35,204 nucleotides of DNA, taken from NCBI GenBank assembly GCA_964365515.1, contig CAYIQK010000001.1, positions 1 to 35,204 of the forward strand. Direction: 5' to 3'. This DNA comes from an uncultured Planctomycetales bacterium. GTDB lineage: Bacteria; Omnitrophota; Gorgyraeia; Zapsychrales; Zapsychraceae. The notes under the pieces were generated by a model that was given only the letters and a program-made list of their open reading frames with translations, had not been told where the DNA came from and did no database searches. The translations under genes and the position numbers were made by a program. Below are positions 14,098-34,838 of the stretch, piece after piece (the stretch's first letter is position 1; each line of letters opens with the position of its first letter).

Positions 14098-14109
14098 ACT
14101 TCAAATGGA

Positions 14110-15135: not shown

Positions 15136-15147
15136 AATATTCTCCTC

Positions 15148-16115: not shown

Positions 16116-17473
16116 TTATGAACCTCCGCATCCGTTTTCATCATTTTCTCAAGAAAATGCGTAGAGATCTCGCCGTCCAAAAACAAATGGTGATTGACGA
16201 TCTCACTGTGCAGTCCAATCGTTGTCTTGATCGGACCCACGTAAAATTCCCCCAAGGCTCTGCTCATGATCTGGATGGCCTCGGGGCGGTCTTTCCCAAA
16301 CGTGATCAACTTCGCCACCATCGAGTCGTAGTGAGGACCGATTTCATAGCCCTGATAGATATGGGTGTCAACACGGACCCCGAATCCTCCGGGCAGGTTC
16401 AATTCCTCGATCCTCCCGGGGCAGGGCATGAAGTTATTCTGGGGATCCTCGGCATTGATGCGGCATTCGATGGCCGCCCCCCGGATTTGGACATCCTCCT
16501 GGCTGATTTTGAGTTTCTCTCCCGCCGCGATCTTGATCTGCTCTTTGACGATATCGATCCCTGTGACCATCTCCGTCACTGGATGTTCAACCTGGATACG
16601 GGTATTCATCTCCATGAAATAAAATTTACCGTTTTTATCCAGGAGGAATTCCACCGTCCCCACCCCCCTGTAGTCAACCGTTCGCGCGGCCAAGACTGCC
16701 GTCTCTCCCATGGTCTTGCGCAATGCGCTGTCTAAAGCCGGAGACGGTGCCTCCTCCAACAGTTTCTGATGACGCCTCTGGATACTGCAATCCCGTTCCC
16801 CCAAATGGATGACGTTCCCGTATTGATCCGCGACGATCTGAAATTCGATATGGCGCGGATCCTGGATGTATTTCTCGATATAGACATCCGAATTTCCGAA
16901 ATTCGCTTCCGCCTCGCTCTGCGCGACCGTAAAAGAACTCACCAGCGTGACGTCATTATGACAAACCCTCATACCCTTACCGCCGCCGCCCGCCGCCGCC
17001 TTGATGATCACCGGATACTTGATGTTTTTAGCAATCTCAATGGCCTCTTCCTTGCTTTTGATTATTCCCTTGCCGCCCGGTGTTAAAGGCACACCGATTT
17101 TACGCATGGTCTCCCGCGCCACGGCCTTATCCCCCATCGCCCGGATGGCCTGGGGAGTCGGACCGATGAAGGTGATGTTACACGACTCACAGATCTCGGC
17201 GAAATGGGCGTTTTCAGAGAGAAAACCATAGCCGGGATGAATCGCCTCCACATCCGTGATCTCGGCGGCGGAGATGATGGCGGGGATATTGAGGTAACTG
17301 TCTAAACTGGGCGGAGGGCCTATACAAACGGACTCGTCGGCAAACCGGACATGCAAAGAATCACGGTCGGCCTCCGAATAGACAGCCACCGTCTGAATAT
17401 TCAATTCCCGGCAGGCTCGGATCACCCTAAGGGCGATCTCCCCGCGATTGGCGATCAAAATCTTGGAAAACAT
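16112..17473 (-). CDS. accC: Acetyl-CoA carboxylase, biotin carboxylase subunit
   Basis: Contains [35 protein letters not shown] and an ATP-grasp layout. The track ORF (to 17593) carries a 40-aa upstream extension that overlaps accB. The ATG at 17473 is the canonical start. Confidence 0.95.
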
Positions 17474-17489
17474 ATTTCGGGATTCTTCC

Positions 17490-17942
17490 CTACACAGGTT
17501 CAACAGAAAACAAGGTCTGGCCGAATTCGACAGGCTGCGCGTTTTCCACGTGGATTTGGGTGATCTTTCCACGGATTTCGGATTTGATCTCATTCATCAG
17601 CTTCATCGCTTCGACGATACATACAACCTGACCCACCTCAACGACCTGACCAACCTCGACGAACGCGGGCGCCTCCGGAGAGGGGGAGAGGTAAAAGGTC
17701 CCCACCATCGGCGATTTGATTTCCTTGCGGTTGGAACCCGCCTTGGAGGATTCTTCCTCAGCCTGCCCCATAGCGTCCGGCGTCTCGAGATGATATTCAA
17801 AAGACGGCCGGCGTAAGGGTTCTACAGCTTCGGCAAATGTCTTTTTGACCTTGATCTTGGTCCCTTCCCGTTCAACCTCAATCTCCGAAAGGTCATTCTC
17901 ATTCATCAGATTGATAATTTCGCGGATTTCTTTCAGGTTCAT
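17490..17942 (-). CDS. accB: Biotin carboxyl carrier protein
   Basis: The C-terminal biotinyl domain carries [12 protein letters not shown] (biotin-lysine K113). Confidence 0.93.
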
Positions 17943-18505
17943 CTTTGCACCCTTTCCACATATCCGCCGGTTCTGGTGTCAATCTTGATCCGGTCGCCGA
18001 TATTGATAAACAGAGGCACCTGGATGACTGTGCCGGTATCGATGGTGGCCGTTTTGGTCCCCGAACGCGTCGAATCCCCTTTGAATCCGGGTTCCGTGTG
18101 GGTGATTTCAGCGAGAATGAAGTTTGGCAACACGATTTTCAAGACCTCGTTGTGGTAACAAACGCCCACCACCTCGAGATTTTCCTGCAAGAATCTTAAG
18201 CTCTCGCCAATCACGTCCTCAGGGACAACGACCTCCTCATAGCTTTGGTGGTCCATGAAATGAAACATCTCACCGCTGCGGTAAAGGTACTGCAGCCGCT
18301 TTTCATCCAAGATGGCATCTTCCAGCTTGTCTGCAGTTCTGAAAGTCCGATCGAGTACCTGGCCGGTTTTAACATTCTTGATTTTCACGCGGACAAAGGC
18401 GCTTCCCTTGCCCGGTTTCACATGGTGGTATTCCAAAACCAGAAAAATATCGTTGTCAAAACGAAGGCCGATCCCGGATTCAATCTGATTAATGGATATC
18501 GTCAC
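17939..18505 (-). CDS. efp: Translation elongation factor P
   Basis: Contains YHHVKPGKGSAFVRVKIKNVKTGQV and a C-terminal OB-domain pattern. It uses a GTG start with GAGG 6 nt upstream. Confidence 0.95.
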   Translation of the reverse strand: MTISINQIESGIGLRFDNDIFLVLEYHHVKPGKGSAFVRVKIKNVKTGQVLDRTFRTADKLEDAILDEKRLQYLYRSGEMFHFMDHQSYEEVVVPEDVIGESLRFLQENLEVVGVCYHNEVLKIVLPNFILAEITHTEPGFKGDSTRSGTKTATIDTGTVIQVPLFINIGDRIKIDTRTGGYVERVQR

Positions 18506-19571
18506 TTAAAACCTCGCATCCTTTCTTGGTTACAAGAACCATATCTTCAATACGGATACCGAATTGGCGGGGGATATACACGGCCGGCTCGACGGTGATC
18601 ACCATTCCCTCCCTGAGGAGGAATGGGTTGTCTGCGCTGAGGCGGGGATTTTCATGGATTTCGAGTCCGACACCGTGTCCGAGGGCATGCCCAAAGTATT
18701 GAGCTAACTTATGTTCTGCTAAATAGTTACGTGCCGCCCGATCGATTTGTGAGATAGGAACTCCGGGCGCGATCTGCTCGATGGCTTTCCGCTGAGCGGC
18801 GGCCACAACAGCGTCTGTTTCCCTAACGAGCGGTGGTATTCTACCTAAAAAGAACATACGTGTCAAGTCGGACTTATAGCCATTTTGGTCAATTCCCACG
18901 TCGACCAAGACCACATCATCCCGACGGATCTTGCGTTGCGTGACCTTGGCGTGCGGGTAGCAGGCATTCGTGCCGCCGGCCACAATCGGATCGAAGGAAA
19001 ACTTGACACCCCTCATCCTGATGAATTCCTCCAGACGCATCAAAATCTCATTTTCAGATAACCCAGGTTTAAGAATTCTTTTTAGAAAGGCGTGCATCTG
19101 CTTGTGAACGGCCAGGGCCTGACGGATTTTCTTAACTTCTTGAGGTTCTTTGAGTTCTCGCAAACGCTCGACAAGCTGATCCGTTCTGACTAAGTTCAAA
19201 GACGGCGGGCTTTTTTTCTTCAATGATTCAAACTGAAAGAGGCTCAGATGACGCGCATCAATGCCGACTCTCCTGACCCCCAAGCGGCGGGTGATCTGCG
19301 CAAAGGCCTCATCAATCGACTTTTGGTATTGAATGACAGTGACTCCCTTGAGCCCTTTCTTGGCCTCAAGAACATAACGAAAATCCGTGAGATAAAACAC
19401 CTCGTGAGGACACACCAAAAGCCAAGACTCCGAGGCCGGAAAAGTGGTGAGATACGAGATATTGATGTCCTTGGTGACTAAAAACGCATCGATCCCGCTA
19501 GGGGCAAAGGAAAATCTGAGTTTTTTGACTCTTGGATTCACAGTGGAAAAGTTATTTTTTGATAAGATCAA
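18489..19571 (-). CDS. pepP: Xaa-Pro aminopeptidase (M24B)
   Basis: The creatinase-like N-domain is followed by a pita-bread domain with metal ligands (VLVDVG..., [26 protein letters not shown]). The start is either TTG 19571 or GTG 19541. Confidence 0.88.
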
Positions 19572-19992
19572 TGATCGCGCGCAGTCCGAGGATATAACTG
19601 TTGGTCTTGAACCCGCTGATCTGGCCTTGGCAGACCGGGGCGATCAGGGATGTGCGGCGAAAGTCTTCCCTGGCATAGATGTTGGAGAGATGCACCTCAA
19701 CCGCAGGGATGTCCACGGCGGCAATGGCGTCGCGGATGGCGACGCTCGTATGCGTGTAAGCGGCGGGGTTGATGAGGATGGCCAGAAACCCATCCTTTTG
19801 GGCCCTGCCAATGGTGTCGACAATCTCCCCCTCATGATTGGACTGCAGGATATTCAGCTGAACCCCTTCGGTTTTGGCCAACCTTTGCAGTGCGTTGTTG
19901 ATCTCTTCAAGGGTGGTTTGTCCGTAAATGTCTTTCTCGCGTTGTCCCAGAAGGTTCAAATTTGGGCCGTGAATGACTAAAATTTTATTCAA
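19552..19992 (-). CDS. aroQ: Type II 3-dehydroquinate dehydratase
   Basis: Contains [37 protein letters not shown] and VEVHLSNI. It uses a TTG start with GGAGG 4 nt upstream. Confidence 0.93.
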
Positions 19993-20013
19993 TTTGCCTC
20001 CATTGTTTTATCA

Positions 20014-20175
20014 CTATTTACCCATCTGTGCTTCCTCCACCAGCATAATGGGGATGCCGTCTTTGACCGGATACCAGCGGCCGCATTGGGTGCAAACGAT
20101 TTTTTCGCCCTCTTGCCGCACACTCCCGCGGCAGGCGGGACAGGCTAAAATCTCCAACAGCTCTTGATCAATCAT
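20014..20175 (-). CDS. Trm112/YcaR (UPF0434)-like small zinc-ribbon protein
   Basis: Absent from the ORF track at 53 aa. The minus strand encodes MIDQELLEILACPACRGSVRQEGEKIVCTQCGRWYPVKDGIPIMLVEEAQMGK. The pattern LLxILxCPxC...C..C...Y.I.DGIP.ML is the Trm112 family signature. Its ATG overlaps the upstream TGA (ATGA). Confidence 0.75.
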   Translation of the reverse strand: MIDQELLEILACPACRGSVRQEGEKIVCTQCGRWYPVKDGIPIMLVEEAQMGK

Positions 20176-20609
20176 GCGATTCCCTCTTTCTGGACCAGAT
20201 CCACATATCGCATCTGCAATTCATAGGCCGCCGTATTAAGCACGTCGCTTTCCTTCTTGGTCAAATTCCCCTTTGTTTTTTCCTGAAGCAAGATCAATGT
20301 ATCAATGACAAACTTGGCCTGCTCCAAATTTTTTTCGCTGGCGTTCGTGGCGGGATTGGGAATTTCCCCTAAAAAAACCATCGCCTGATACCCCAGAGTT
20401 GTGATGTAGTTGAGAAAATCAGCCTCCCGGCCGCCGTGAGACTGATCGTCTTCGGCGCCAGGAGAAGATGCCGCGCCCTGTTCTTTGTCTGGACGAGCCT
20501 GACCGAAGGGTTTCTTCGCTTCTCCCTCATTCATCAGGATCTCAAGCCGATCCTTCTCCTGGGCGGCGCTTTCTTTCCACGATTCATCAACCGATTTTTC
20601 TCGTTCCAT
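20172..20609 (-). CDS. DUF1844-like protein of unknown function
   Basis: An acidic N-terminus is followed by FLNYITTLGYQAMVFLGEIPNP...EQAKFVIDTLILLQEKTKGNLT, which matches my memory of the DUF1844 consensus. Confidence 0.65.
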   Translation of the reverse strand: MEREKSVDESWKESAAQEKDRLEILMNEGEAKKPFGQARPDKEQGAASSPGAEDDQSHGGREADFLNYITTLGYQAMVFLGEIPNPATNASEKNLEQAKFVIDTLILLQEKTKGNLTKKESDVLNTAAYELQMRYVDLVQKEGIA

Positions 20610-20668
20610 ATTTGGTGTCCTTTAAGGTTACAAAGTTACCGTCAGAATATCACTCCTAAGCCCTGCTG

Positions 20669-21379
20669 TCAATTCTTCGAACTCTCCTCTCCCACCTCAA
20701 AAGAAATGATGACATTGAAAGTCAACTCCGGATAATCCAGTTCATGAGGAAATGAAGGAAACGGCGCGGAATTTTCGATGCTGCGCACCCCGATCTCCTG
20801 CAAATACCTGTTCGCGGAAGTCCGGCTGGCAATGACTTTCACATTCCGCAGGACTCCGCTGGATGCCAGCACAAAGGTCAGATACACCTCACCCGACGTA
20901 AAATCGGGGTGATCGACATAAGAATAAGCCGTCTGTTTGATCCTCTGGCGAATGTCTTCGTTATAATCCAAATACCTCGGGTTTGTGATCTTCTCCGATT
21001 CCAAAAGCGGGATGACAACCCTGCGGTCTAAATCCAATGTCTGAATTGTGGGGATCTTCTTTTTATCCAAATCCAACCTCTGCGTCAATTTGGAGATATC
21101 CTTGATGTCATTGGCGATGGAAGAAGAACCCTCGGATGTCTTGGAAAAAACCTTGATATCCTGCGCCGGCAATTTCTGTTTCATGACCCGCACATCCCTG
21201 AATGAGGCATCTTTTCTCGGAGCCGGCTCTTTCTTTACGGTCTGATAAGTCACCTCGATGGGCTTCAACGGTTTTGGAAATATCTTAACGCCTGCCGTGG
21301 CAACAGAAAAATAGAGAATGGTCAGAAGATGAATCGCAAACGAGGCCGTCAGGCCGCAATAAAAAAGTTTATTTTCCAT
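20669..21379 (-). CDS. TonB C-terminal-domain protein (TonB-like energy transducer)
   Basis: The N-terminal TM helix is LFYCGLTASFAIHLLTILYF. The C-terminus GEVYLTFVLASSGVLRNVKVIASRTSANRYLQEIGVRSIENSAPFPSFP...FNVIISFEV fits the TonB_C pattern. The ATG at 21379 is preferred; the track start at 21418 overlaps GT2 by 50 nt. Confidence 0.6.
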   Translation of the reverse strand: MENKLFYCGLTASFAIHLLTILYFSVATAGVKIFPKPLKPIEVTYQTVKKEPAPRKDASFRDVRVMKQKLPAQDIKVFSKTSEGSSSIANDIKDISKLTQRLDLDKKKIPTIQTLDLDRRVVIPLLESEKITNPRYLDYNEDIRQRIKQTAYSYVDHPDFTSGEVYLTFVLASSGVLRNVKVIASRTSANRYLQEIGVRSIENSAPFPSFPHELDYPELTFNVIISFEVGEESSKN

Positions 21380-22052
21380 GATCCTTTGAGGAACACAACT
21401 CTTTGGTAAAATAAGCAAGAAACCGAACGGTGTCTTTCAGGGGGTTGATCTTGCTTTCTTCATCCTGATAAATCGTTTTGATGGGGACGGAATAAATCCG
21501 GCATCCTCGCTTGGCCGCCTTCATGAGCATCTCGGTTTCGATCTCAAAGTCATCGCAATTCAAAGAGATGTTTCTCAAGACCCCGGTGTCGATATACCGG
21601 TATCCGCACTGGGTATCCGGAATCCTCTGTCCGCAGGCAAGGGAAATGATCGCAGACATCAAGCGGTTGGTCAGATACCGGATCCAAGGCATCCCGTCCG
21701 GTTTGGCCATCCGGTTGCCCACAATCACGCCGGGACGCTCCCGCTCGACCAGCCGGATGAACTGTTCTAAGTCCGCGGCGTCGTGCTGGCCGTCGCCGTC
21801 CATTGTGACAACGCCGTCATATCCGCGCTCGACGATGTGCCGGAACCCGTCGCGCAGGGACTGCCCCTTGCCCTTTTTGGTATCATGCCGGAGGACTGTC
21901 GCGCCCTTTTGGCTGGCAATCGCGCCGGAATCATCCGTCGACCCGTCATCGACCACAACAACATCCAGATTCCGCTTGCGCAGGGATTCAACCACAGACC
22001 CGATCGCCTGGGATTCGTTGAGAACGGGAATCAGGACGCAAATCTTAGTCAT
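21369..22052 (-). CDS. Family 2 glycosyltransferase (polyprenol-phosphate sugar synthase-like)
   Basis: Contains ICVLIPVLNE, VVVVDDGSTDDS and MDGDGQHD (DxD), which together form a GT-A/GT2 signature. Confidence 0.85.
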   Translation of the reverse strand: MTKICVLIPVLNESQAIGSVVESLRKRNLDVVVVDDGSTDDSGAIASQKGATVLRHDTKKGKGQSLRDGFRHIVERGYDGVVTMDGDGQHDAADLEQFIRLVERERPGVIVGNRMAKPDGMPWIRYLTNRLMSAIISLACGQRIPDTQCGYRYIDTGVLRNISLNCDDFEIETEMLMKAAKRGCRIYSVPIKTIYQDEESKINPLKDTVRFLAYFTKELCSSKDHGK

Positions 22053-22055
22053 AAA

Positions 22056-22940
22056 CTATTCTTTCTTGGATTCGGGGGATACGGCAAAATCCCGAAACAA
22101 TAGCCACTGGGTGGGATACCGGCGGATTTGCGCTTCAATCACGGCCAGATACCGGCGCATGATCTCCCGCACAGCCTCCTCTTCGGGAATCCCTTCCTCT
22201 TCTGCCGGTGGAAACATCGGTTCGAGAATGGAAAGCCGGAACGTATCATCCGGATCGCGGATCAGAAACGTCGGCAGAATCGGCGCCCCGGTCTTTTGGG
22301 AAAACATGGCGGCCCCTTTTGGGATGAGCGCCTTGACCCCAAAAAAATCCATCAATTCGCCGCCCTTGACCGTAAAATCGCGGTCGGCAACTATGGCGAT
22401 GATCTTATTGCCCTTGAGATGTTCCATGCATTTACGGATGGCGTTGTGAGTAGGGACAACCGTGATCCCCTTAAACTCCCTCTGGTGATTGAACAAATCA
22501 TTGACGGGCCGCTCCTTGTGCGGCAAGGCGACGGCCATGATCGGATACCCCAGCACACTCAACAGAACAGCTCCCAGTTCCCAGTTGCCGATATGGGCCG
22601 TGACGACAATGCCCCCCTTGCCCGCCTTGAGCGCCTGCTGGACACTTCCACTGTTTTCGATTTTGATTTTGCGCGCGATAAAATCCTTGTCGATCATCTG
22701 CTCCATGCGCAGGAATTCCACCAAATATTTCCCGAAATTCCGGAACACCTCGCGGGTCATGCCCTGAACATTTTCCACACCCGGCATAATTTTCTTCAAA
22801 TTCCTGCACACAGCCCTCCGGTCCCGAAATGAAAAAAGGTAATGCAAATCCGACAGGATGATGCCCAGCTGATACGAAGTCTGAAGCGACAGGCGGTTGA
22901 CGAGGCAATGGGCGAACTTATACATGCAATATTTAAACAT
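22056..22940 (-). CDS. Lysophospholipid/lipid A-type acyltransferase (LPLAT, LpxL/HtrB-like)
   Basis: 294 aa. Contains VTAHIGNWELG (the Hx4E/D acyltransferase motif), an N-terminal membrane-association segment and an LpxL-like length. Confidence 0.8.
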   Translation of the reverse strand: MFKYCMYKFAHCLVNRLSLQTSYQLGIILSDLHYLFSFRDRRAVCRNLKKIMPGVENVQGMTREVFRNFGKYLVEFLRMEQMIDKDFIARKIKIENSGSVQQALKAGKGGIVVTAHIGNWELGAVLLSVLGYPIMAVALPHKERPVNDLFNHQREFKGITVVPTHNAIRKCMEHLKGNKIIAIVADRDFTVKGGELMDFFGVKALIPKGAAMFSQKTGAPILPTFLIRDPDDTFRLSILEPMFPPAEEEGIPEEEAVREIMRRYLAVIEAQIRRYPTQWLLFRDFAVSPESKKE

Positions 22941-24372
22941 GACCGCTTAGGGCTTCACCGCAGTTTGTTGCCGCGGGGCACGCCGATCCTTCCGGCATAC
23001 TTAAGATCAGTCGGGCGATATCGAGCGCCGCTTGAGGCTTGGCATTCTCCAAGGCGGCCTTTCGCATGGCCGCCAGCCGCTCGGGGGATTTGAGCAGGAT
23101 CTCCACTTCTTCGCCGATGTCGTTGGTGTCATCGATGCGGACTCCTACCCCTTTTTTAAGAAGAAAATCCGTATTGCGCATTTCTTGACCCGGGATAGGA
23201 TTGATAATGATCATCGGCAGACCCTTGGCCAAGGATTCCGCCGTTGTCATGCCGCCGGGTTTGGTGATGATCAGATCGGCCACTTCCATCAATTCCTCGA
23301 CATTCGTGACGAATTCAAAAATCAATATCGTCTTATCGGTCTTACGGGCATACCGGCGCAGACTGTTGACGATCTTTGTGTTAACACCGGCGAGGACAAT
23401 GATCTGAAGCTGCATATTCACCTTGCCCAGCGATTTGACGATTTTCTTGATCGGGCCTAACCCCTGCCCGCCCCCCATCACAAGGATGGCCGGCACCTGC
23501 GGATTCAGCCCCAGCTTTTGTGCGATTGTTGCGCGCTCCAACGGCACGCCGAATCTCGGACGAAGAGGAATACCGTAAACCTTGATGATATCGGCACGGA
23601 CGCCCTTCGCCACAAGACGATCTTTCACCTCCGCGGACGGAACGACATAATAGTCCACCCCCTCGTTCAGCCAGTAGGAATGGGGCGCGAAATCCGTCAA
23701 GACCCCGATAATCTTAGTATTCAAATGGTGCACTATTTTGTAATCCGCCACCATCCCGCAGGGAAACGCCTGGGTGCAAACAATCACATCTGGCCGGTAG
23801 CTTTTGATCAAGTTGGCAATCTTCGCATGGCTTGTCTTGTGCAAAAATTTTTTGATGGGTTCGGATTGCTTGAATATCTGTGGATTGTCATAAAGGTAGT
23901 CCCAGACCTTCGGCGTCCTTTTGATGACGCTCATGTAGGCCTTATTGATTATCTTCTCAAGGATGGGATAAGTGTAGCCGAAGCCGTTGATCGCCGGGGC
24001 CTCGATGTCCGGGTCGATCTGATGCAGGGCCTGCTGGATCGCGAGGGTCGCCTGCCGGTGGCCGGAGACCTTCGTGATGTACATCAACAGAACGCGTCTT
24101 TTGTTCTGTGTGAGAGGTTCAGGCTCAATCGCCCCGAGGGCCTCGCCGATTCTCGCTTCCTGGCCGTCCTTGACTAAAATCTCCCGCAAAATTCCGCAGG
24201 CGCCAGCCGGGATATTGAACGAGGCCTTATCGGTCACGACCTCAACAACGTCATCATCCTCTTCCACTTGGTCGCCTTCCTTGCGATGCCAGCAGGCCAC
24301 GGTGGCCTTTTCGATTCCCTCGCCTAAGTCGGGCAGTGTGACAAAACTCATACAATCCTTATTGGTAACCAT
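22933..24372 (-). CDS. Fusion protein: N-terminal E2-type lipoyl-attachment domain plus an MGDG-synthase-like/GT28 diacylglycerol glycosyltransferase
   Basis: The N-terminus FVTLPDLGEGIEKATVACWHRKEGDQVEEDDDVVEVVTDKASFNIPAGACGILREILVKDGQEARIGEALGAIE is a canonical lipoyl domain with TDKA. After a PEPLTQNK linker comes RVLLMYITKVSGHRQATLAIQQAL...QAFPCGM (MGDG_synth-like N-domain), then ILVMGGGQG...ITKPGGMTTAESLAKGLPMIIINPIPGQE (GT28 C-domain). It is one uninterrupted 479-codon frame. Confidence 0.85.
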   Translation of the reverse strand: MVTNKDCMSFVTLPDLGEGIEKATVACWHRKEGDQVEEDDDVVEVVTDKASFNIPAGACGILREILVKDGQEARIGEALGAIEPEPLTQNKRRVLLMYITKVSGHRQATLAIQQALHQIDPDIEAPAINGFGYTYPILEKIINKAYMSVIKRTPKVWDYLYDNPQIFKQSEPIKKFLHKTSHAKIANLIKSYRPDVIVCTQAFPCGMVADYKIVHHLNTKIIGVLTDFAPHSYWLNEGVDYYVVPSAEVKDRLVAKGVRADIIKVYGIPLRPRFGVPLERATIAQKLGLNPQVPAILVMGGGQGLGPIKKIVKSLGKVNMQLQIIVLAGVNTKIVNSLRRYARKTDKTILIFEFVTNVEELMEVADLIITKPGGMTTAESLAKGLPMIIINPIPGQEMRNTDFLLKKGVGVRIDDTNDIGEEVEILLKSPERLAAMRKAALENAKPQAALDIARLILSMPEGSACPAATNCGEALSGHV

Positions 24373-24387
24373 TCACTATTCACCAAC

Positions 24388-25020
24388 TCACAGCAACCCA
24401 AATTCCCTGCTAAAACATTCAATCAGCCGTTCCTTGACATCCCTCATATCCACTTCTTCACCTTTGACACGGACCATCGAGGTCATCCGGACATCCAGCC
24501 CACAGGGTTTGATCCATTCAAACAATTTCAAATCCGTATGGACGTTGATTGCCAGACCGTGAAATGTCACCCACTTCTTGACCCCCACGCCGAGGGAGGC
24601 GATCTTCTCCCCGGCGACCCACACCCCGGTCAGACTAGAAATTCTATTAGCCACTATACCAAAACTCCTCAATAAATCAATGGCAACTTGTTCTAACTTC
24701 TGTATATAAAGCCGTAAATCACGACTGCTCTGCGCCAGGTTCAAGATTGGGTAAACCACCAACTGCCCCGGGGCATGGAGCGTCACATCCCCCCCCCGAT
24801 CAATGGGGACAACGCGGATGCCCGATCGCTCAATCGCCTCGCGGTCTAAAATGTTCGCCTCTTGGGCTAACCGGCCCAGAGTGATCACAGCCGGGTGCTC
24901 ACACAAAAGAATCGTCTGCGCCCCGCCCGCCAGCACCCGCATCACAGACTCTTTCTGAATCCGGTACGCCGCGTCGTAGTCAATCAGGCCTAAGTCTTGG
25001 ACTTCATAGATATTTTGCAT
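24388..25020 (-). CDS. lipB: Octanoyl-[ACP]:protein N-octanoyltransferase
   Basis: 210 aa. Contains LLCEHPAVITLGR, RGGDVTLHAPGQLVVYPIL and KIASLGV...HGLAINV, the LipB pattern including the catalytic C in KPCGL. Confidence 0.9.
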   Translation of the reverse strand: MQNIYEVQDLGLIDYDAAYRIQKESVMRVLAGGAQTILLCEHPAVITLGRLAQEANILDREAIERSGIRVVPIDRGGDVTLHAPGQLVVYPILNLAQSSRDLRLYIQKLEQVAIDLLRSFGIVANRISSLTGVWVAGEKIASLGVGVKKWVTFHGLAINVHTDLKLFEWIKPCGLDVRMTSMVRVKGEEVDMRDVKERLIECFSREFGLL

Positions 25021-25064
25021 AATACAAAACCCCGTTCCGTGATCTTGACGAAAACGAAACGAGG
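25021..25064 (-). terminator. Intrinsic-terminator-like hairpin between the IDH-family gene and lipB
   Basis: The minus-strand RNA CCUCGUUUCGU-(13-nt loop)-ACGGAACGGGG forms an 11-bp stem by hand pairing, including 2 G-U pairs. It is followed by UUUUGUAUU and then the lipB AUG. The 3' arm contains the only Shine-Dalgarno-like GGGG for lipB. Confidence 0.35.
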
Positions 25065-25101
25065 TTCCATGGTTCGAATCAGAGCGGATACCAACGGCCG
25101 T

Positions 25102-26307
25102 TCATTTGAAATTATAGACTTCTGCCTCCCACCGGGATTTGAGCGCGGGGTTATCGATCCAGGATAAAACATATTTCGTATATTCCTCACCCGTAACGCC
25201 TGTATCGCGTCCGGTGATCGTTATTTTTTTCTCGAACTGGCCGCAGACCTCTAAAGCCATTTCTACCTTTGCGGCTTTTTCAGGATAGCCGATATGCCGC
25301 AAAAGCATCGCGCTCGCCCGGATCATGGAACAAGGATCCGCGTATTGCGCGCGGCCTTCCTTGACCATCCGCGGCGCACTGCCGTGGATGGCCTCAAACA
25401 TCGACCATCGATCTCCAATATTGGCGCTTCCAGCGGTGCCGACACCCCCCTGCAACTGGGCCGCCTCGTCGGTCAAGATGTCACCGTAAAGATTGGGCAT
25501 CACCATCACCTTGAAATCCTTGCGACGCGCAGGGTCAATGAGTTTGGCCGTCATGATGTCAATATACCATTCGTCACACTGGATCGCGGGATATTCCTTC
25601 GCGATGCGCTTGGCCGCGCGCGAAAACCGGCCGTCGGTTGTCTTGATCACGTTCGATTTGGTGATGACCGTTACGCGGTCGATGTGATTCTTCTTGGCGT
25701 ATTCAAACGCCATGCGGATGATGCGCTCAGACCCTTGTTCGGTCGCCACCGTAAAATCAACGCTCAAATCTTTGGAGACATCAAAACCCTTCGATCCCAA
25801 GACATAGGCCCCTTCGGTATTTTCGCGGAAGAAACACCAGTCAACGCCCTCGCGGGGGATCTTGACAGGACGCACATTGGCGAACAAGTCCAGCGCCCGG
25901 CGCATCGCCACATTCGCGCTTTCGATATTTGGCCACGGATCGCCCGCCTGTGGAGTTGTGGTCGGCCCTTTGAGAATCACGTGGCACGACTTGATCGCAC
26001 TCAACACATCATCGGGGATGGCCTGATTGTGTTTGACGCGGTTTTCGATCGTGAGGCCGGCAATATCCTTAAATGTGATCTTGCCCTTGGCAGTCTCGTC
26101 CTTCAAAACATACTCCAAGACATGTTGGGCGTGTTTGGATATGATCTCTCCGATGCCGTCGCCGGGACAGACTCCGATTGTGATCGGACGTAACGAGGCG
26201 TAGTCCACCCTTTCAACCCCTTTTTTCATCGCTTCGACGCGCTTGAGTTGTTCCTCAAGGACGGCGCCGAATTTTTGTTGAGCGGCTTCAATCAATTCCT
26301 TGGACAT
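25102..26307 (-). CDS. Isocitrate/isopropylmalate dehydrogenase family protein (most like NAD(P)-isocitrate dehydrogenase)
   Basis: Contains GDGIGEII, NLYGDILTDEAAQLQGGVGTAGSANIG and HGSAP. It has an additional N-terminal helix of about 35 aa. Substrate cannot be fixed by eye. Confidence 0.8.
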   Translation of the reverse strand: MSKELIEAAQQKFGAVLEEQLKRVEAMKKGVERVDYASLRPITIGVCPGDGIGEIISKHAQHVLEYVLKDETAKGKITFKDIAGLTIENRVKHNQAIPDDVLSAIKSCHVILKGPTTTPQAGDPWPNIESANVAMRRALDLFANVRPVKIPREGVDWCFFRENTEGAYVLGSKGFDVSKDLSVDFTVATEQGSERIIRMAFEYAKKNHIDRVTVITKSNVIKTTDGRFSRAAKRIAKEYPAIQCDEWYIDIMTAKLIDPARRKDFKVMVMPNLYGDILTDEAAQLQGGVGTAGSANIGDRWSMFEAIHGSAPRMVKEGRAQYADPCSMIRASAMLLRHIGYPEKAAKVEMALEVCGQFEKKITITGRDTGVTGEEYTKYVLSWIDNPALKSRWEAEVYNFK

Positions 26308-26322
26308 CTTGAGAAACCTCTT

Positions 26323-27393
26323 TCATCTTTTCTTTCCCTTCATATTCAGCAGCTGTCTGAATTCCTCGACATTTTTCACCTGCGTGACCGCATCCTCATA
26401 AGTGATGATCCCCTGCTCAAACAAATTCCTCAATGAAGAATCCATTGTGTACATCCCGTACTGCATGCCGGTCTGGATGGAAGTGGGGATCTGTTCAATA
26501 GCCTTTTCCCTGATGAGATTTCGCACTGCCGGAGTGGCGACCAACACTTCCGTCACTAAAACACGTCCATCCCCTTCGGCCCGAGGGAGCAGTCTCTGGC
26601 ACACAATCCCCTGAAGGCAGGCGGAGAGCTGAAGCCGCACCTGCTGCTGCTGATGGGCAGGAAAAACGTCGATGATACGCTCAATGGTCTGGGCGGCGTC
26701 GGGGGTGTGCAATGTGGCCAAAACGAGATGTCCAGTTTCAGCTGCAGTCAAAACGGTAGCGATCGTTTCTAAGTCCCGCATCTCTCCCACCACAATGACA
26801 TCCGGATCCTGGCGCAGACAGCGTTTCAGGGCCTCGGCGAAAGAATGGGTGTCGCTGTAGACCTCCCGCTGTTTGATCACGGCTTTTTTATTCCGATGCA
26901 CATACTCAATGGGGTCTTCAATGCAGATGATCATGCAGGATTGCTCTTTGTTGATCAGATCAATCATCGCGGCTAGCGTCGTCGTTTTGCCAGAGCCCGT
27001 CGGCCCTGTCACCAAAACCAAACCGTCGGGTCTGCGCGCCAAATCAATGAAGATCGGCGGCAGTCCCAAATCATCGATCGACGGCACGATGAGAGGAATG
27101 CGGCGGAAGGCCGCCTCAACGGATCCCCTTTGGATATGGACATTGACGCGGAACCGCTCCATCCCTTCTAAGGCGAGAGAAAAGTCGAGCTCCCTGTCCC
27201 GCTCAAATTTTTCTTTTTGGTCATCCGAAAGGATACCGTAAATGGCTTTCTTCAATTCTTCTTTGGTGAAAGGCTTGTACTCCGTGAAAATGAGTCTTCC
27301 GTCGATCCGAAGGACAGGCGGGGCACTCTCGGTTAAGTGCAGGTCGGATGCATTGTTTTTGATGCACAATTTGAGAAGTTCCTTAAGATCCAA
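26323..27393 (-). CDS. pilT: Type IV pilus retraction ATPase PilT
   Basis: Contains ASDLHLTESAPPVLRIDGRL, Walker A GPTGSGKTT, IVVGEMRD, the His box LATLHT and AVRNLIRE. Confidence 0.9.
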   Translation of the reverse strand: MDLKELLKLCIKNNASDLHLTESAPPVLRIDGRLIFTEYKPFTKEELKKAIYGILSDDQKEKFERDRELDFSLALEGMERFRVNVHIQRGSVEAAFRRIPLIVPSIDDLGLPPIFIDLARRPDGLVLVTGPTGSGKTTTLAAMIDLINKEQSCMIICIEDPIEYVHRNKKAVIKQREVYSDTHSFAEALKRCLRQDPDVIVVGEMRDLETIATVLTAAETGHLVLATLHTPDAAQTIERIIDVFPAHQQQQVRLQLSACLQGIVCQRLLPRAEGDGRVLVTEVLVATPAVRNLIREKAIEQIPTSIQTGMQYGMYTMDSSLRNLFEQGIITYEDAVTQVKNVEEFRQLLNMKGKKR

Positions 27394-28579
27394 TTTTCCC
27401 TCCTGTTTTTTTCATCCACTCGCCGATGCGCTTGACCCCTTCGCGGATCCTCTCTGCGGAGGTCGCGAAACTCAGACGCAGGAATCCCGGTGCCCCGAAG
27501 CTGTCGCCGGGGATAACCGCGACCTTGACTTCATCCAAGATCCGTTGAGCCATCTCGGCGGATGGCATGCCAAAGTGCGAGAAATCACAAAACAGATAAA
27601 AAGCCCCTTGCGGCTTGAGGTAACTGACGCCGGGGATTGCATCCAACGAAGAGATCATGATATCCCGGCGTTTCTTGAATTCATCCCGCATCGCCAAAAT
27701 TGTCTGCTCCGGTTCCCGAAGGGCCTGCAACGCGGCCGCCTGGCTGATGGATGCCGGATTCGAAGTCGTGTGATCCTGGAAGTTTTTCACGTAATCCATA
27801 ATCTCTTGCGGCCCTGCGGCATAGCCGATCCGCCAGCCCGTCATCGAATACGCCTTGGAGACACCATTGACCGTGATCGTCAAATTCCATATGTCTTGAC
27901 CGAGGGACGCGATCGAAGTGTATGGATCCGCATCATAAGTCAACTTTTCATAAATTTCATCGCTAAGGACAAAAACATGATGACGAACACAAATTTCGGC
28001 AATGGCCTGTAATTCTTCCCTGGAATAGATCATCCCCGTCGGATTGGAGGGCGAGTTTAAAATCAACAATTTTGTTTTTGGCGTGATAGATTGGGAAAGC
28101 CCAGAGGCGGTGACCTTGAAATCGGTCTTGGCGCTCGTTGGGATGAATTTCGAGGCGGCACCCGTGATCTTGACCATCTCGGGGTAGCTGACCCAGTAAG
28201 GAGAGGGAATGAGCACCTCGTCCCCTTCATCGGTCAAGACCTGGATCACATTGAAGATCGAATGCTTGGCGCCGCAGGAGGCGACAATCTGGGAAGGTTG
28301 GTAATCGAGGTCGTTATCTTTTTTAAACTTGGCGGCGATGGCCTTGCGCAGTTCAACGGTTCCCGTGCTCGGCGTATATTTGGTGAATCCGTTTTCAATG
28401 GCCTTGATCGCGGAGGCTTTGATCGAATCCGGGGTATCGAAATCCGGCTCGCCGGCCGCGAAATTGACAACATCTTGGCCCTGGGCCGCGAGCTCCTTGG
28501 CCCTCGCCGTGATCGCAAGGGTTGTCGAACCGACGATGTCTTTGATCCGGCTGTTGATCTTGATCGACAACGTCTCCAA
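27383..28579 (-). CDS. Class I PLP-dependent aminotransferase (aspartate aminotransferase-like)
   Basis: Contains NFAAGEPDFDTP and NSPSNPTG, with SKAYSMTGWRIGY carrying the PLP lysine. It uses a TTG start with AAGGGA upstream. Confidence 0.88.
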   Translation of the reverse strand: METLSIKINSRIKDIVGSTTLAITARAKELAAQGQDVVNFAAGEPDFDTPDSIKASAIKAIENGFTKYTPSTGTVELRKAIAAKFKKDNDLDYQPSQIVASCGAKHSIFNVIQVLTDEGDEVLIPSPYWVSYPEMVKITGAASKFIPTSAKTDFKVTASGLSQSITPKTKLLILNSPSNPTGMIYSREELQAIAEICVRHHVFVLSDEIYEKLTYDADPYTSIASLGQDIWNLTITVNGVSKAYSMTGWRIGYAAGPQEIMDYVKNFQDHTTSNPASISQAAALQALREPEQTILAMRDEFKKRRDIMISSLDAIPGVSYLKPQGAFYLFCDFSHFGMPSAEMAQRILDEVKVAVIPGDSFGAPGFLRLSFATSAERIREGVKRIGEWMKKTGGKIGS

Positions 28580-28622
28580 GATTCCCTTCTCTTTCTACGC
28601 CACAATCATTCAGCAGAGGATA

Positions 28623-29186
28623 TCACTTCTCGGATGATCTTTGATTGAACATCCTGCGGATACCGCCGAGCATTCCCTTTTTTCCTTGATCCTTGTGATG
28701 ATCTGTCGCGTCCTTAGGAAGCTGGTGCCTGATCGCGTCCTTACCTGGAATCATCTCCTTGGCAGGAATGACTTCCGCTTTTTCCTTCTTGACCGCCGCG
28801 CTCGATTTGGGTTTGGCTATGATCACTTCTTCTTTCTCGGTGAGCTCCAAAAAAACCAGATGGGCGTTGTCCCCTCTTCGTGTCCCCAGGTGGATAATCC
28901 GGGTATATCCGCCGACCCGATTTTTGAAACGCACAGAGGTTTTGGCAAACAGATCCCTCACCAACCCGTGGTCACACAAAATCGCAAACGCCCGGCGTTT
29001 ATCCGACAGGCTCCCTTTTTTACCCAATGTGATAAGTTTGTCCACCAGCTTACGGGCTTCCTTGGCCTTGGCCTCGGTGGTGCAGATCCGTTGTTTGATC
29101 AGCGTTGCCTTGGCGAGATCCCTGAGGGTAGCCTTGCGCAAACTCGAATTCCGGCTCAATTTGTTTCCTGCAATCCCGTGTCGCAT
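28623..29186 (-). CDS. rplQ: 50S ribosomal protein L17 with a C-terminal extension of about 70 aa
   Basis: Contains MRHGIAGNKLSRNSSLRKATLRDLAKATL...TTEAKAKEARKLVDKLITLGK...GGYTRI. The canonical fold ends near ...LVFLEL, and a Lys-rich tail follows. Confidence 0.93.
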   Translation of the reverse strand: MRHGIAGNKLSRNSSLRKATLRDLAKATLIKQRICTTEAKAKEARKLVDKLITLGKKGSLSDKRRAFAILCDHGLVRDLFAKTSVRFKNRVGGYTRIIHLGTRRGDNAHLVFLELTEKEEVIIAKPKSSAAVKKEKAEVIPAKEMIPGKDAIRHQLPKDATDHHKDQGKKGMLGGIRRMFNQRSSEK

Positions 29187-29187
29187 G

Positions 29188-30174
29188 TTATTCCTTTTTT
29201 CTCAATTTTTTCGTTTCGACCTTCATCCCTAAACTCAACCCCATGACCTTCAAAAGATCATTGATCTCCGTCAGAGATTTCTTCCCGAAGTTGCGGAAGG
29301 TCAAAAGCTCCGATTCAGTCTTTTTGACTAATTCAGCGATCGTCTTGATATTCGCGTCCTTCAGGCAGTTGGCGCTTCGCACCGACAATTCCAGTTCGGA
29401 GATCGGCAGACGCAGTTTCTCATAAAGAGCCTGCTCTTCGGCGGAAATCTCTTCCTCTTCCTCCTCTTCCTCGGGAAGCTGTCCATAACTGACAAACACA
29501 TCCAGGTGTCTTTGAAGGATATTCGCGCCGTAAAGGAGCGCTTCCTTGGGATTGATCCCGCCGTTGGTCCAGATCTCCAGGACGAGGCGGTCATAATCCG
29601 TACGCTGGCCGACACGCGTATTTTCGACATTGAAGTTCACGCGGACAATCGGCGTGAAAATGGAATCGATGGCGATGGTATCAACGACCTCTTTCTTGTT
29701 TTGGTCGGACGGCACATACCCCCGGCCGCGCGCGATCTCCATTTCCACATAAAAACGCGTGTCCCGCGTCAGCGTGGCGATGTGAAGATCAGGGTTGAGA
29801 ACTTCAATCGTCTCATCGCAGATGATATCCACGGCCTTCACTTCACCTTTTTTCTCCGCTTTGATGTAAACGGTTTTGGGAACTTTGGAATAAGACTTCA
29901 AAATCAATTTCTTAATGTTTAAGATGATCTCGGTGACGGACTCCAAAACCCCAGGGATGGTTGAAAATTCATGACGGACACCTTCCACCTTGACTGAGGT
30001 GACGGCACTTCCCTCGATGGAAGACAACAAAATCCGCCGCAGAGAATTCCCCAACGTCACACCGTAACCCTTTTCAAATGGTTCCGCGAGAAATTTCCCG
30101 TATGTGTCCGTACAACTTGATTCATCGCAATCGAGCCGTTTAGGCATCTGAAAATCTCGCCACTTAACTCCCAT
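29188..30174 (-). CDS. rpoA: DNA-directed RNA polymerase alpha subunit
   Basis: The N-terminal domain ([18 protein letters not shown]) is joined by an acidic E8 linker to the C-terminal domain ([23 protein letters not shown]). A strong Shine-Dalgarno (AAGGAGG) lies upstream. Confidence 0.96.
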
Positions 30175-30251
30175 GTTTCCCTCCTTGAATGAAACCTGCC
30201 ATTTCTGGGCGGCATTTCACTTCGACTATTGCTCCGATGACACCGTCACTT

Positions 30252-30881
30252 TTACCGCGAATAAAGCTCGACGATCAGCTGTTCATTGACGGGAAACGTG
30301 ATGTCTTCCCGCTCAGGCATCCTCTTGACCTTGGCCTTGTAATGGCTGTGGTCCGCTTCCAGCCAGCCGGGGACAGCCCTGTCTTTGGAATACTGGATGT
30401 TCTCGTCAATGTTTTTCCTGCCCTTCTTCTTGAACTGTATGCAGATTTCGTCATTCGTTTTGACCAGAAACGACGGGATGCTCACCCTGCGGTCATTGAC
30501 AAAGACATATCCATGATTCACAATCTGCCTAGCCTCCCGACGGGAGGTCGCAAATCCGATCTGATAGATCGCATTGTCCAATCGGCGTTCCAAAAATTGA
30601 AGAAGGGCCGTGCCGGTCACACCCTTCCTGCGAGAAGCCTCATTGAAGTAATTTCTAAACTGTTTTTCAAGAATACCATAAATCCTTTTGACTTTTTGCT
30701 TCTCGCGCATCTGCAATCCGTAGTTGGAGAGCTTCGTACGCCGCGCGTTTCCATGCTGTCCGGGAGCATAGGCCCGGCGTTCGACAGCACAGCGGTAGGT
30801 GGTGCATCTGGCCCCTTTGAGGAAAAGTTTTTCACCTTCCCGCCGGCACAACCGGCAACTTGACCCAACGTATTTTCCCAT
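30252..30881 (-). CDS. rpsD: 30S ribosomal protein S4
   Basis: Canonical start MGKYVGSSCRLCRREGEKLFLKG at ATG 30881. The 34-aa upstream extension in the track ORF overlaps rpsK and I do not accept it. Confidence 0.95.
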   Translation of the reverse strand: MGKYVGSSCRLCRREGEKLFLKGARCTTYRCAVERRAYAPGQHGNARRTKLSNYGLQMREKQKVKRIYGILEKQFRNYFNEASRRKGVTGTALLQFLERRLDNAIYQIGFATSRREARQIVNHGYVFVNDRRVSIPSFLVKTNDEICIQFKKKGRKNIDENIQYSKDRAVPGWLEADHSHYKAKVKRMPEREDITFPVNEQLIVELYSR

Positions 30882-30927
30882 AGACCGTATCCTTCCTAAG
30901 AATCCCCAGAATGGAAATGAAATCCCG

Positions 30928-31353
30928 TTAAACCCGCCGTTGCTTCCTCGCCCGGCAGCCGTTGTGAGGCAAAGGAGTGACATCTTTGATCGATGTCACC
31001 GCCAAACCATTGGCCTGCAAAGCCCGGATGGCCGACTCCCGGCCGGAACCCGGCCCATTGACCAACACCTCGACGGTTCTTAACCCCAGGTCTTTGGCTC
31101 TGCGGGCCGCATCCGTCGCCGCCACCTGAGCCGCAAAAGGCGTCGATTTTTTCGAACCGCTAAAACCGACAACCCCCGGAGTTGACCAGACCAAGACATT
31201 GCCCTGATGATCGGTGATTGTAACAACCGTATTATTGAATGTGGCCTTGATATGGGCGATTCCCGATGTGATGCCCTTCAAATTCTTTTTCTTGGCCTTT
31301 TCTTTCTGCCGTGTGGTTGGGGTGGCGGCTTTCACCGGTTCTTTATTGACCAT
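30928..31353 (-). CDS. rpsK: 30S ribosomal protein S11
   Basis: Contains [18 protein letters not shown]...[14 protein letters not shown]...VKGPGSGRE-like blocks and [13 protein letters not shown]. Confidence 0.95.
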
Positions 31354-31375
31354 AGATCATATTCTCCTTAAACCC

Positions 31376-31750: not shown

Positions 31751-31754
31751 AGTT

Positions 31755-31868: not shown

Positions 31869-31869
31869 T

Positions 31870-34837: not shown

Positions 34838-34838
34838 G

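Follow-up and report, generated by a model that had tools for sequence, protein, structure and literature searches.

To our knowledge, lipoate works only in 2-oxoacid dehydrogenases, acetoin dehydrogenase, glycine cleavage, and sHdr sulfur oxidation. Here we analyze an open reading frame (ORF) in which a lipoyl domain (LD) is joined to a glycosyltransferase of family GT28, encoded on contig CAYIQK010000001.1 of GenBank assembly GCA_964365515.1 from an uncultured member of the Omnitrophota (family Zapsychraceae); "the window" refers below to the whole stretch of DNA that was analyzed, 35,204 nucleotides in length. The fused LD::GT28 protein is most probably an evolutionary by-product. What is new is the apparent existence of an orphan, stand-alone lipoyl carrier that is conserved across the phylum together with LipB, LipA, and Lpd, and that lies beside, and appears to have been fused twice to, a putative glycolipid operon.

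The closest described counterparts of the LD are those of the E2 subunits of 2-oxoacid dehydrogenases (pyruvate dehydrogenase E2p; PDB entries 9y7v, 1lab, 2l5t, and 1qjo), which belong to the same family and fold, carry the same hairpin lysine in a TDKA motif, have a proline-containing flexible linker, and are of the type that LipB uses as a substrate. In contrast to these, the domain studied here comes with no peripheral-subunit-binding domain, no E2 core, and no E1 nearby; it was ancestrally a free protein of ∼76 amino acids and now sits on a glycosyltransferase. Neisseria P64k E3 (1gjx, 5u25) and the LD-E1beta protein of some pyruvate dehydrogenase complexes (NCBIfam NF008854), both of which are among the matches to this LD, likewise have an N-terminal LD linked to an enzyme without an acyltransferase core, but there the partner is a component of a dehydrogenase complex, while here it is a membrane-lipid glycosyltransferase without known lipoate use.

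LbpA of sHdr sulfur oxidation has been described as a GcvH-like carrier encoded with its maturation genes, and LipB as an all-purpose transferase (PMC10332631). As small lipoyl carriers with a mobile arm, encoded beside their own attachment and sulfur-insertion genes, GcvH and LbpA provide the best analogy for the lpd-lipB-lipA-LD module that we find in other Omnitrophota classes (see below). The Omnitrophota LD nevertheless differs in being of E2 type (PF00364) and in being accompanied by canonical lipB and lipA rather than by sLpl(AB), LipS1, or LipS2; the loci are not of the sHdr-LbpA type, the lipA ORFs reaching only 33 to 42 bits on the LipS2 model (cutoff, 270), and GcvP, GcvT, and sHdr genes were absent beside the Omnitrophota LD loci examined.

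The glycosyltransferase half shares with MGD1 (4wyi, 4x1t) and UgtP/YpfP (9wde) the GT-B fold, the combination of MGDG_synth and Glyco_tran_28_C domains, and the G-loop histidine, but its identity to MGD1 is only 23 to 25%, it scores 229 bits against a UgtP cutoff of 500, and it has an N-terminal LD. A looser parallel is provided by an operon of the Fibrobacteres-Chlorobi-Bacteroidetes (FCB) group, comprising VanZ-2, an SprA-like channel, a GcvH-like lipoyl carrier, and TonB-C proteins, that Aravind and colleagues read as an uncharacterized envelope lipid modification (bioRxiv 10.1101/2025.01.14.632903). There, too, a lipoyl carrier is encoded with a lipid-modifying enzyme and TonB-C proteins; the carrier is GcvH-like, however, the other enzymes and the phylum are different, and both systems are known from gene neighborhoods alone.

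The fused protein and its two halves

The initial annotation of this DNA had reported a single 479-codon frame beginning with an E2-type LD, followed by a PEPLTQNK linker and a complete GT28 enzyme, and had named K49 as the modifiable lysine. The frame is present as described among the ORFs of the window, and its parts, together with the lipB gene upstream, are as follows.

22933..24372, minus strand: fused LD::GT ORF, a single 479-codon frame counted from the first ATG
24124..24351, minus strand: LD of E2 type (residues 8 to 83), recognized by Pfam, PDB sequence matches, and AlphaFold2 (AF2)/Foldseek
24226..24228, minus strand: codon of the lysine in the TDKA motif (K49, or K42 counted from M8), within VVTDKASF and conserved in Omnitrophota LDs
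24100..24123, minus strand: linker PEPLTQNK, from the junction alignment with the unfused loci L170 and L002
22993..24099, minus strand: GT-B glycosyltransferase of the MGDG synthase/UgtP (GT28) type (residues 92 to 460), recognized by Pfam, PDB matches, and AF2
24388..25020, minus strand: lipB, octanoyl/lipoyl transferase of 210 amino acids (Pfam LplA-B_cat, 144.5 bits; motifs RGGDVTLHAPGQ, VKKWVTFHG, and KPCG)

Pfam, which had been proposed as a check on both halves, detected each of the three domains with a score above the gathering threshold: Biotin_lipoyl at residues 11 to 81 of the fused ORF (57.4 bits; gathering score, 22.1), MGDG_synth at residues 105 to 269 (92.9 bits; cutoff, 25), and Glyco_tran_28_C at residues 296 to 449 (53.6 bits; cutoff, 22). 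The identity of the upstream gene likewise holds, as the encoded LipB passes two NCBIfam equivalog models (TIGR00214, 153.5 bits, cutoff 83.55; PRK14345/NF010925, 170.4 bits, cutoff 155), but the distance from the lipB stop to the first ATG of the fused ORF is 15 nt and not the 16 nt first given. The true start is probably M8 (ATG at 24351), which would yield a protein of 472 amino acids and a gap of 36 nt to lipB; we prefer this start because a Shine-Dalgarno-like AAGGA lies 5 nt upstream of that ATG and because 65 of the 78 homologues having a residue there begin at the same position. A promoter and terminator scan of positions 20000 to 26500 returned counts near the shuffled expectation.

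Sequence and predicted structure agree on the nature of the N-terminal half. Its best NCBIfam matches are the LDs at the N termini of the E2 proteins SucB and AceF, a PDB sequence search recovered 9y7v_D first (E = 9e-23), and all but one of the PDB matches are named as LDs of E2, E3BP, or LD-bearing E3, the exception being 6l1q_C, labeled CbbQ. When the LD was modeled alone by AF2 with 41 homologues, an all-beta model with a predicted local distance difference test score (pLDDT) of 90.5 was obtained, and a Foldseek search of the PDB with this model returned LDs of 2-oxoacid dehydrogenases (OADH) as its first 14 matches (query TM up to 0.91), with biotinyl domains only afterwards; the model thus has the predicted fold of an LD (flattened beta-barrel, barrel-sandwich hybrid). 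Biotinyl domains have MKM around their lysine, and LDs have a DKA context. Across 83 Omnitrophota LDs the residues E44, T47, K49, A50, and F52 are conserved in every sequence and D48 in 82, and the TDKA motif is distinct from the EAMKLM motif of the AccB encoded elsewhere in the window, a protein with which the LD has no BLASTP similarity. These results support the interpretation that this is a bona fide lipoyl-acceptor domain placed on a flexible linker ahead of a glycolipid glycosyltransferase. The obvious candidate for modifying its lysine is LipB, and gene neighborhoods (lipB next to the LD here, lipA and lpd next to it in relatives) support a predicted octanoylation or lipoylation of this residue.

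Judged from its sequence, the fused ORF does not encode an E2, as it lacks a core, a subunit-binding domain, and an E1 partner: Pfam placed a subunit-binding domain and a 2-oxoacid_dh core neither in the ORF nor in the other large ORFs scanned across the 35 kb. The relatives of the LD that could be detected, 98 in number, are without exception stand-alone proteins of 75 to 89 amino acids that are unnamed or, in Joint Genome Institute (JGI) annotation, called "E2 component"; the full JGI name, given to stand-alone LDs of 76 to 85 amino acids (P0419, P0425, P0438, P0443, P0454, and P0485), is "pyruvate/2-oxoglutarate dehydrogenase complex E2 component." With such labels, automated metabolic reconstructions may over-call dehydrogenase complexes in Omnitrophota.

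The second half is well placed in its family. PDB sequence matches include a processive diacylglycerol beta-glucosyltransferase (9wde, 3e-42) and Arabidopsis MGD1 (4wyi, 8e-35), the glycosyltransferase part of the full-length AF2 model has a pLDDT of ∼90, and Foldseek aligned this part with MGD1 entries 4wyi (E = 1.6e-20; target TM, 0.84) and 4x1t (E = 2.9e-20; target TM, 0.88). The best NCBIfam matches are diglucosyl-diacylglycerol synthases, with the leading score (NF010135, 229.3 bits) below the equivalog cutoff of 500; by these matches the enzyme is a member of GT28 and not a named UgtP orthologue. It carries the SGH catalytic-loop histidine, H105, which is invariant in the clade and present in 58 of the 60 representatives displayed, the other 2 being gapped there, as well as a CTQAFPCG motif. 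Its predicted product is a glycosyl-diacylglycerol, formed by transfer of a hexose from a UDP-sugar to diacylglycerol; the gene context consists of an LPLAT acyltransferase gene after the glycosyltransferase gene and, in locus L168, gpsA after that pair.

The AF2 check that had been suggested for the initial annotation gave a confident fold for the glycosyltransferase half, but docking of the lipoyl arm on it was not seen. In the full-length model the linker has a pLDDT below 50 and the LD one of 47 to 63, and no confident packing of LD against glycosyltransferase was found in this low-confidence region, which only 3 sequences cover, making the model unreliable on contacts between the two.

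A rare and derived merger

The LD::GT28 fusion is rare, derived, and recent. In a scan of one genome per GTDB species we found 307 genomes with a relative of the glycosyltransferase and analyzed the best 80 loci by tblastn; in all 80, a separate LD coding region lies directly upstream of the glycosyltransferase gene with a stop codon between the two, and a direct stop-codon test recovered no fused ORF (0/80). None was seen either in 80 metagenome loci, a set not given the same stop-codon test. The separate Omnitrophota LD gene between lipB and the glycosyltransferase gene encodes 75 to 90 amino acids, in 77 of the 80 GTDB species loci the LD is preceded by lipB (the remaining 3 are contig ends), and genes for LPLAT and a GT2 glycosyltransferase follow wherever the contig allows. 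The gene order in unfused relatives is lipB, a Biotin_lipoyl protein of 76 to 85 amino acids, GT28, LPLAT, GT2, a TonB-like protein, and a DUF1844 protein. Many of the GTDB records with an Omnitrophota-type locus (L009, L011, L013, L014, and others) bear the title "uncultured Planctomycetales bacterium," a name that was probably retained from earlier usage for binned genomes of the Planctomycetes-Verrucomicrobia-Chlamydiae (PVC) group.

Among the 120 best homologues of the glycosyltransferase, PF00364 is present only in P0001, a protein of NCBI assembly GCA_040960315.1 that is 92% identical to the window protein, and in P0002, which is 66% identical and encoded on a 2-kb ENA contig; the others are ∼390 amino acids long. 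Overall, the fused state was found in 3 of 240 listed glycosyltransferase clusters (two lists of 120). A HMMER search over 1.84 billion cluster representatives at 50% identity gave no match reaching the LD region (query residues 1 to 74) among the best 150, and literature searches found no description of an LD::GT28 architecture, of stand-alone LDs, or of an Omnitrophota lipoyl module. The suspicion of the initial annotation that this architecture had not been described is therefore borne out, and the fusion is not the common, already characterized arrangement that was weighed against that claim. Its treatment of the fusion as the design of the system does not stand, since a separate LD is ancestral and near-universal (80/80 GTDB loci; 98/98 LD relatives); LD::GT28 was not found as a shared architecture of the orthologous group.

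The unfused loci provide insight into how the two genes could merge. In the five-gene unit the median gaps are 4 nt between lipB and LD, 9 nt between LD and glycosyltransferase, 6.5 nt between glycosyltransferase and LPLAT, and −4 nt between LPLAT and GT2; the LD and glycosyltransferase genes overlap in 17 of 79 loci and are separated by at most 30 nt in 68 of 79. The boundary is thus operon-tight, and the two ORFs could be merged by small mutations. The link to the TonB-like gene is looser, with a gap after GT2 of more than 150 nt in 10 of 67 loci and insertions there in some genomes.

L170 is the nearest unfused sister; its LD ends in ...VEGPGEKRG*, a 10-nt spacer follows, and the glycosyltransferase begins MDTPSAGEKRRILLMY, while the junction in the window reads ...IEPE-PLTQNKRRVLLMY. 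Alignment with L170 and L002 implies that the window lineage lost ∼34 nt, comprising the LD stop, the ∼10-nt spacer, and ATG-GAC-ACG including the glycosyltransferase start; a deletion of 34 nt leaves a remainder of 1 on division by 3, which equals the frame offset between LD and glycosyltransferase in L170. The PEPLTQNK linker is accordingly composed of the former C-terminal tail of the LD (PE) and the former N terminus of the glycosyltransferase (PLTQNK), and the linker in the second fused genome, GCA_040960315.1 (locus L001), is identical. A separate observation concerns L170 itself, where the LD stop and glycosyltransferase start (positions 1450..1510) lie between two short, almost identical repeats, GGAGAAAAGAGA and GGAGAAAAAAGA, each of which encodes GEKR. 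Repeats of this kind could favor deletions at the junction; the end points of the deletion in the window do not coincide with them.

The third fused protein has a junction of a different kind. In P0002 it reads ...QPVVSTPRAT-M-QLTKVDKKRVLL; it is longer, and the ancestral start methionine of the glycosyltransferase is still in place, which indicates that this fusion arose through stop loss or read-through. The P0002 fusion rests on a single 2-kb contig and was read at the protein level. In a neighbor-joining tree of the glycosyltransferase parts (200 bootstraps), the window/P0001 pair and P0002 each fall among unfused sequences, and the three fused proteins are monophyletic in 0 of 200 bootstraps. 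The glycosyltransferase part of the window protein is 77.7% identical to its nearest unfused relative and that of P0002 79.4% identical to its own, compared to 69.9% between the two. Because monophyly was never recovered, each fused protein has closer unfused relatives, and the junctions differ, the merger appears to have happened twice, in two lineages and with different junction types. Between the window and L001, the LD has a dN/dS of 0.088 and the glycosyltransferase one of 0.103 (dS, 0.3 to 0.6), demonstrating that both halves are under purifying selection and have been maintained since the fusion.

The window is presumably a metagenome-derived contig, to judge by its relatives, which are metagenome-assembled genomes and metagenome contigs, and in nearly all of these relatives the two neighboring genes stand apart. 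The fused ORF could in principle stem from a chimeric assembly or from a sequencing error through which a stop or frameshift between the genes was lost. We consider such an artifact extremely improbable: the fusion recurs with an identical linker in an independent NCBI assembly (L001), ∼90 synonymous differences separate the two ORFs, and one 34-nt deletion, of a length that matches the frame offset in L170, accounts for the junction.

The lipoyl carrier and its candidate partners

To place the LD in a wider context we compared a second set of 80 loci, whose glycosyltransferases are 44 to 53% identical to that of the window and which belong to other Omnitrophota classes such as Gorgyraia. In these, the glycosyltransferase-LPLAT(-GT2) trio is nearly always intact, a split between glycosyltransferase and LPLAT was never seen, and across both sets LPLAT lies directly downstream of the glycosyltransferase in essentially all loci. 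The arrangement upstream of the glycosyltransferase is more varied: lpd-lipB-lipA-LD, lpd-lipB-LD, and lpd-LD all occur directly before it, while in others lipB-lipA-LD is followed by an Lrp-type regulator and an aminotransferase, or lpd-lipA-LD by an aminotransferase, before the glycosyltransferase gene is reached. The LD and glycosyltransferase genes are adjacent in 27 of the second-set loci and have an Lrp-type regulator and/or an aminotransferase between them in 18; in 10 loci no LD was found within 2.5 to 4.5 kb upstream of the glycosyltransferase. The boundary between LD and glycosyltransferase is therefore rigid in the clade of the window and soft elsewhere.

The accompanying genes can be named with confidence, as lpd reaches 469 bits on the equivalog model for dihydrolipoyl dehydrogenase (TIGR01350; cutoff, 409) and the radical-SAM genes pass the lipA model (TIGR00510, 316 to 343 bits; cutoff, 310). 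In the second set lipA is present in 29 of 80 loci and lpd in 25 of 80; in the clade of the window itself neither was found within 5 kb of the locus. Compact lpd-(lipB)-(lipA)-LD modules occur in L088, L091, L095, L153, L168 (6856-9974), and L169 (8383-9998), located between aconitase-Iso_dh-Mdh and the GT28 operon, and no E1, E2 core, or GcvP/GcvT was found beside these modules, which encode all that is required for building a lipoyl protein and cycling it between redox states. In L168, gpsA, encoding an NAD-dependent glycerol-3-phosphate dehydrogenase, replaces GT2 after GT28-LPLAT (11101..12997), which fits a glycerolipid role. Gene content thus points to the LD as the last gene of a lipoyl-carrier module and to the glycosyltransferase as the first gene of a glycerolipid module. 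Because the LD travels with lpd, lipB, and lipA in other classes, we infer that it acts as a redox carrier that bears lipoyl and is cycled by E3, and not as an octanoyl relay.

The wider gene order in the second set (S11, S4, rpoA, L17, aminotransferase, aconitase, Iso_dh, Mdh, lpd, lipB, lipA, LD, GT28, LPLAT, and then GT2 or gpsA) shows that this locus is embedded among unrelated housekeeping genes, and the gene order of the window matches that string, running from rpoA/L17 to accBC.

We lean toward the explanation, which we consider probable, that the fusion is a genuine, lineage-specific, in-frame merger of two operon genes that was accidental and is tolerated, with halves that remain functionally independent. 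A deletion of ∼34 nt removed the LD stop, the spacer, and the glycosyltransferase start, leaving the LD tail and the glycosyltransferase N terminus as a flexible linker of 8 residues. LipB would then octanoylate the LD lysine, LipA, presumably encoded elsewhere in the genome, would insert the sulfurs, and Lpd (E3) would cycle the dithiolane with NAD(H), while the glycosyltransferase half would make glycosyl-diacylglycerol at the membrane together with LPLAT and GT2; most likely, the halves would still do separate jobs in one chain. LDs tolerate tethering. We favor an accidental merger because the fusion is rare, arose by two mutational routes across a 9-nt gap, spans a boundary that is soft elsewhere, lies within housekeeping synteny, and has no predicted docking, and these features suggest that mechanistic coupling between the LD and glycosyltransferase halves is absent.

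Several points weigh against this explanation. No break in the lipB-LD-GT-LPLAT-GT2 unit occurs in any of the 80 species of the window's class although its flanks vary, and two independent fusions that persist under purifying selection are a classic "Rosetta stone" hint of a functional link, with the second fusion, P0002, resting on a single 2-kb contig. Moreover, the literature on 2-oxoglutarate dehydrogenase (OGDH), pyruvate:ferredoxin oxidoreductase (PFOR), and gcv leaves no evident conventional client for the LD in many lineages, and the sole positional clue to its partner is the neighboring glycolipid operon.

These points bear on a possible, though unlikely, redox coupling, in which a lipoyl-LD cycled by Lpd and NAD(H) would act as a dithiol/disulfide arm to switch on or gate the glycolipid pathway, for instance by acting on cysteines of the GT28 enzyme, so that the fusions would hard-wire an existing partnership. 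Such coupling would fit the co-operonic LD and glycosyltransferase of 80 of 80 species in the window's clade with their median gap of 9 nt, the 27 further loci in which the LD remains directly upstream of the glycosyltransferase despite shuffled genes upstream of the LD, the two independent fusions, the adjacency of lpd if taken as a sign that the LD is redox cycled, and the lack of another obvious client in many lineages. It would also recall plant MGDG synthase, of the same fold family, which is under thioredoxin regulation (PMC8375268). Within the glycosyltransferase, the motif V-C199-TQAFP-C205-G (window positions 23758..23778) is the most conserved and served as the search pattern in both collection scans, and both of its cysteines are invariant in the clade. 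This Cys199/Cys205 pair is, however, unspecific, as it occurs in 66 of the 150 GT28 representatives, at identities as low as ∼35%, and in glycosyltransferases that have no LD nearby (L099 and L128); as the pair occurs irrespective of LD linkage, we rejected it as a marker of an LD-dependent redox switch. The interruption of the LD-glycosyltransferase boundary in 18 loci and the absence of a nearby LD in 10 speak in the same direction, as does the fact that a docked arrangement was not predicted (the LD being of low confidence in the model).

A broader proposal, which we regard as doubtful, is that the LD, an orphan carrier of E2 type that would be matured by LipB together with LipA and kept cycling by Lpd, serves the GT28-LPLAT-GT2 glycolipid pathway as a swinging dithiol or acyl-dithiol arm. 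If true, this would be a fourth, undescribed job for protein-bound lipoate, and the two LD::GT28 fusions would be its natural hard-wiring.

The order lipB-LD::GT-LPLAT, with its overlapping ORFs, and the ability of the LPLAT family to move acyl groups to sugars and lipids could also be read as an acyl relay, in which an octanoyl or S-acyl-dihydrolipoyl group on the LD is handed to the adjacent LPLAT for glycolipid acylation. The lipA and lpd genes in the LD module of related classes argue instead for a dithiolane redox cofactor and not a terminal octanoyl group. In addition, an N6-octanoyl amide is unactivated as a donor for ester formation, and no E1-like enzyme that could form an acyl-lipoyl thioester was found in the window or the neighboring loci, and we consider this relay very unlikely. 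The initial annotation had put forward three roles for the LD; that of a dedicated LipB substrate is supported by our comparison, lipA and lpd in the module speak against the acyl relay, and a dithiol redox switch is possible, though we found no specific evidence for it.

The question of which enzyme might use the carrier depends on the gene content of whole genomes, and our statements on lipA, lpd, gcvH, and OGDH across Omnitrophota genomes come from two papers. A 2026 preprint on 176 complete Omnitrophota genomes reports that OGDH (K00164, K00658) is absent in 176/176. Seymour et al. 2023 (PMC10066038) report that pyruvate is oxidized by PFOR in most Gorgyraia and Velamenicoccia and include lipA and lipB in their KEGG orthology (KO) lists. 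In their Table S5, the full glycine cleavage system including gcvH and lpd is listed for Omnitrophia, Fredricksoniimonadaceae (Zapsychrales), and Velamenicoccaceae, while in one part of the table 23 of 53 rows, counted by hand and mostly Gygaellales, have lpd (K00382) without gcvH, gcvT, and gcvP. The objection that GcvH or E2 substrates elsewhere in the genome would explain lipB thus holds for some orders, where GcvH is common, but not for the many others in which it is reported absent in that table. Taken together, lpd without gcv genes, the reported absence of OGDH, and the use of PFOR would leave E3 without its usual partners, and the stand-alone LD may be the sole lipoyl protein in some Omnitrophota lineages.

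The presence of a glycine cleavage system, GcvH included, in many Omnitrophota, together with the constant association of the LD with lipB and, in other classes, also with lipA, raises another alternative, in which the LD, like GcvH in Bacillus or mitochondria, merely passes octanoyl or lipoyl groups on to a protein such as GcvH and its adjacency to the glycosyltransferase is irrelevant. We regard this as improbable, as a LipL-type amidotransferase was not seen next to the module, a relay would be unneeded if LipB is the all-purpose transferase it is described to be (PMC10332631), GcvH is reported missing from many lineages that keep lpd, and lpd beside the LD argues that the LD itself is redox cycled.

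Whichever partner it has, something uses a conserved lipoyl carrier in a widespread, uncultured, and mostly anaerobic phylum that relies on PFOR. The fused gene offers an experimental handle on this, as lipoylation, reduction by Lpd, and dependence of glycolipid synthesis could all be assayed on one recombinant protein.

Surrounding genes in the window

The initial annotation had described the genes downstream of the fused ORF as an LPLAT acyltransferase with an 8-nt overlap, a GT2 enzyme after a 3-nt gap, and a TonB-like protein, and all of this was confirmed. These genes and the biotin-carrier locus further along are as follows.

22056..22940, minus strand: LPLAT, LpxL/PatA-like acyltransferase (Pfam Lip_A_acyltrans, 142.4 bits), overlapping the fused ORF by 8 nt
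21369..22052, minus strand: GT2, polyprenyl-phosphate glycosyltransferase-like (Pfam Glycos_transf_2, 85.8 bits), 3 nt after LPLAT
20669..21418, minus strand: TonB-C-like protein, named from synteny and weak TonB_2 and tonB_Cterm matches, both under cutoff
16112..17942, minus strand: accB-accC, in which AccB, the second Biotin_lipoyl-family domain, is a genuine biotin carrier (EAMKLM motif) and AccC is biotin carboxylase

The best NCBIfam matches of the LPLAT are a phosphatidylinositol mannoside (PIM) acyltransferase and LpxL, both under cutoff, and those of the GT2 enzyme are AglJ/PpgS-like, also under cutoff; as in unfused relatives, the gene for a DUF1844 protein follows that for the TonB-C-like protein. 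A Pfam sweep of the 38 large ORFs judged to be genes found no E1, E2 core, E3, GcvH, or LipA in the 35-kb window, in agreement with the earlier statement that E1, E3, and glycine cleavage genes are missing there. Three ORFs of 195 to 212 amino acids, at 841..1479 (minus strand), 2396..2983 (plus strand), and 15148..15762 (minus strand), had no Pfam match at E ≤ 1e-4.

The whole window (1..35204) is a stretch of a long gene string that is conserved across Omnitrophota, with nearly all genes on the minus strand: secY-adk-map ... S4-rpoA-L17-aminotransferase-T2SSE ATPase-Iso_dh-lipB-LD::GT-LPLAT-GT2-TonB-like-DUF1844-aroQ-pepP-efp-accB-accC-Asp23-...-pfk-...-thiE. Mycobacteria have relays composed of Lpd, a lipoyl protein, and a peroxidase. 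A peroxiredoxin of the Redoxin/AhpC-TSA family is encoded at 173..745 (minus strand), 23 kb from the LD.

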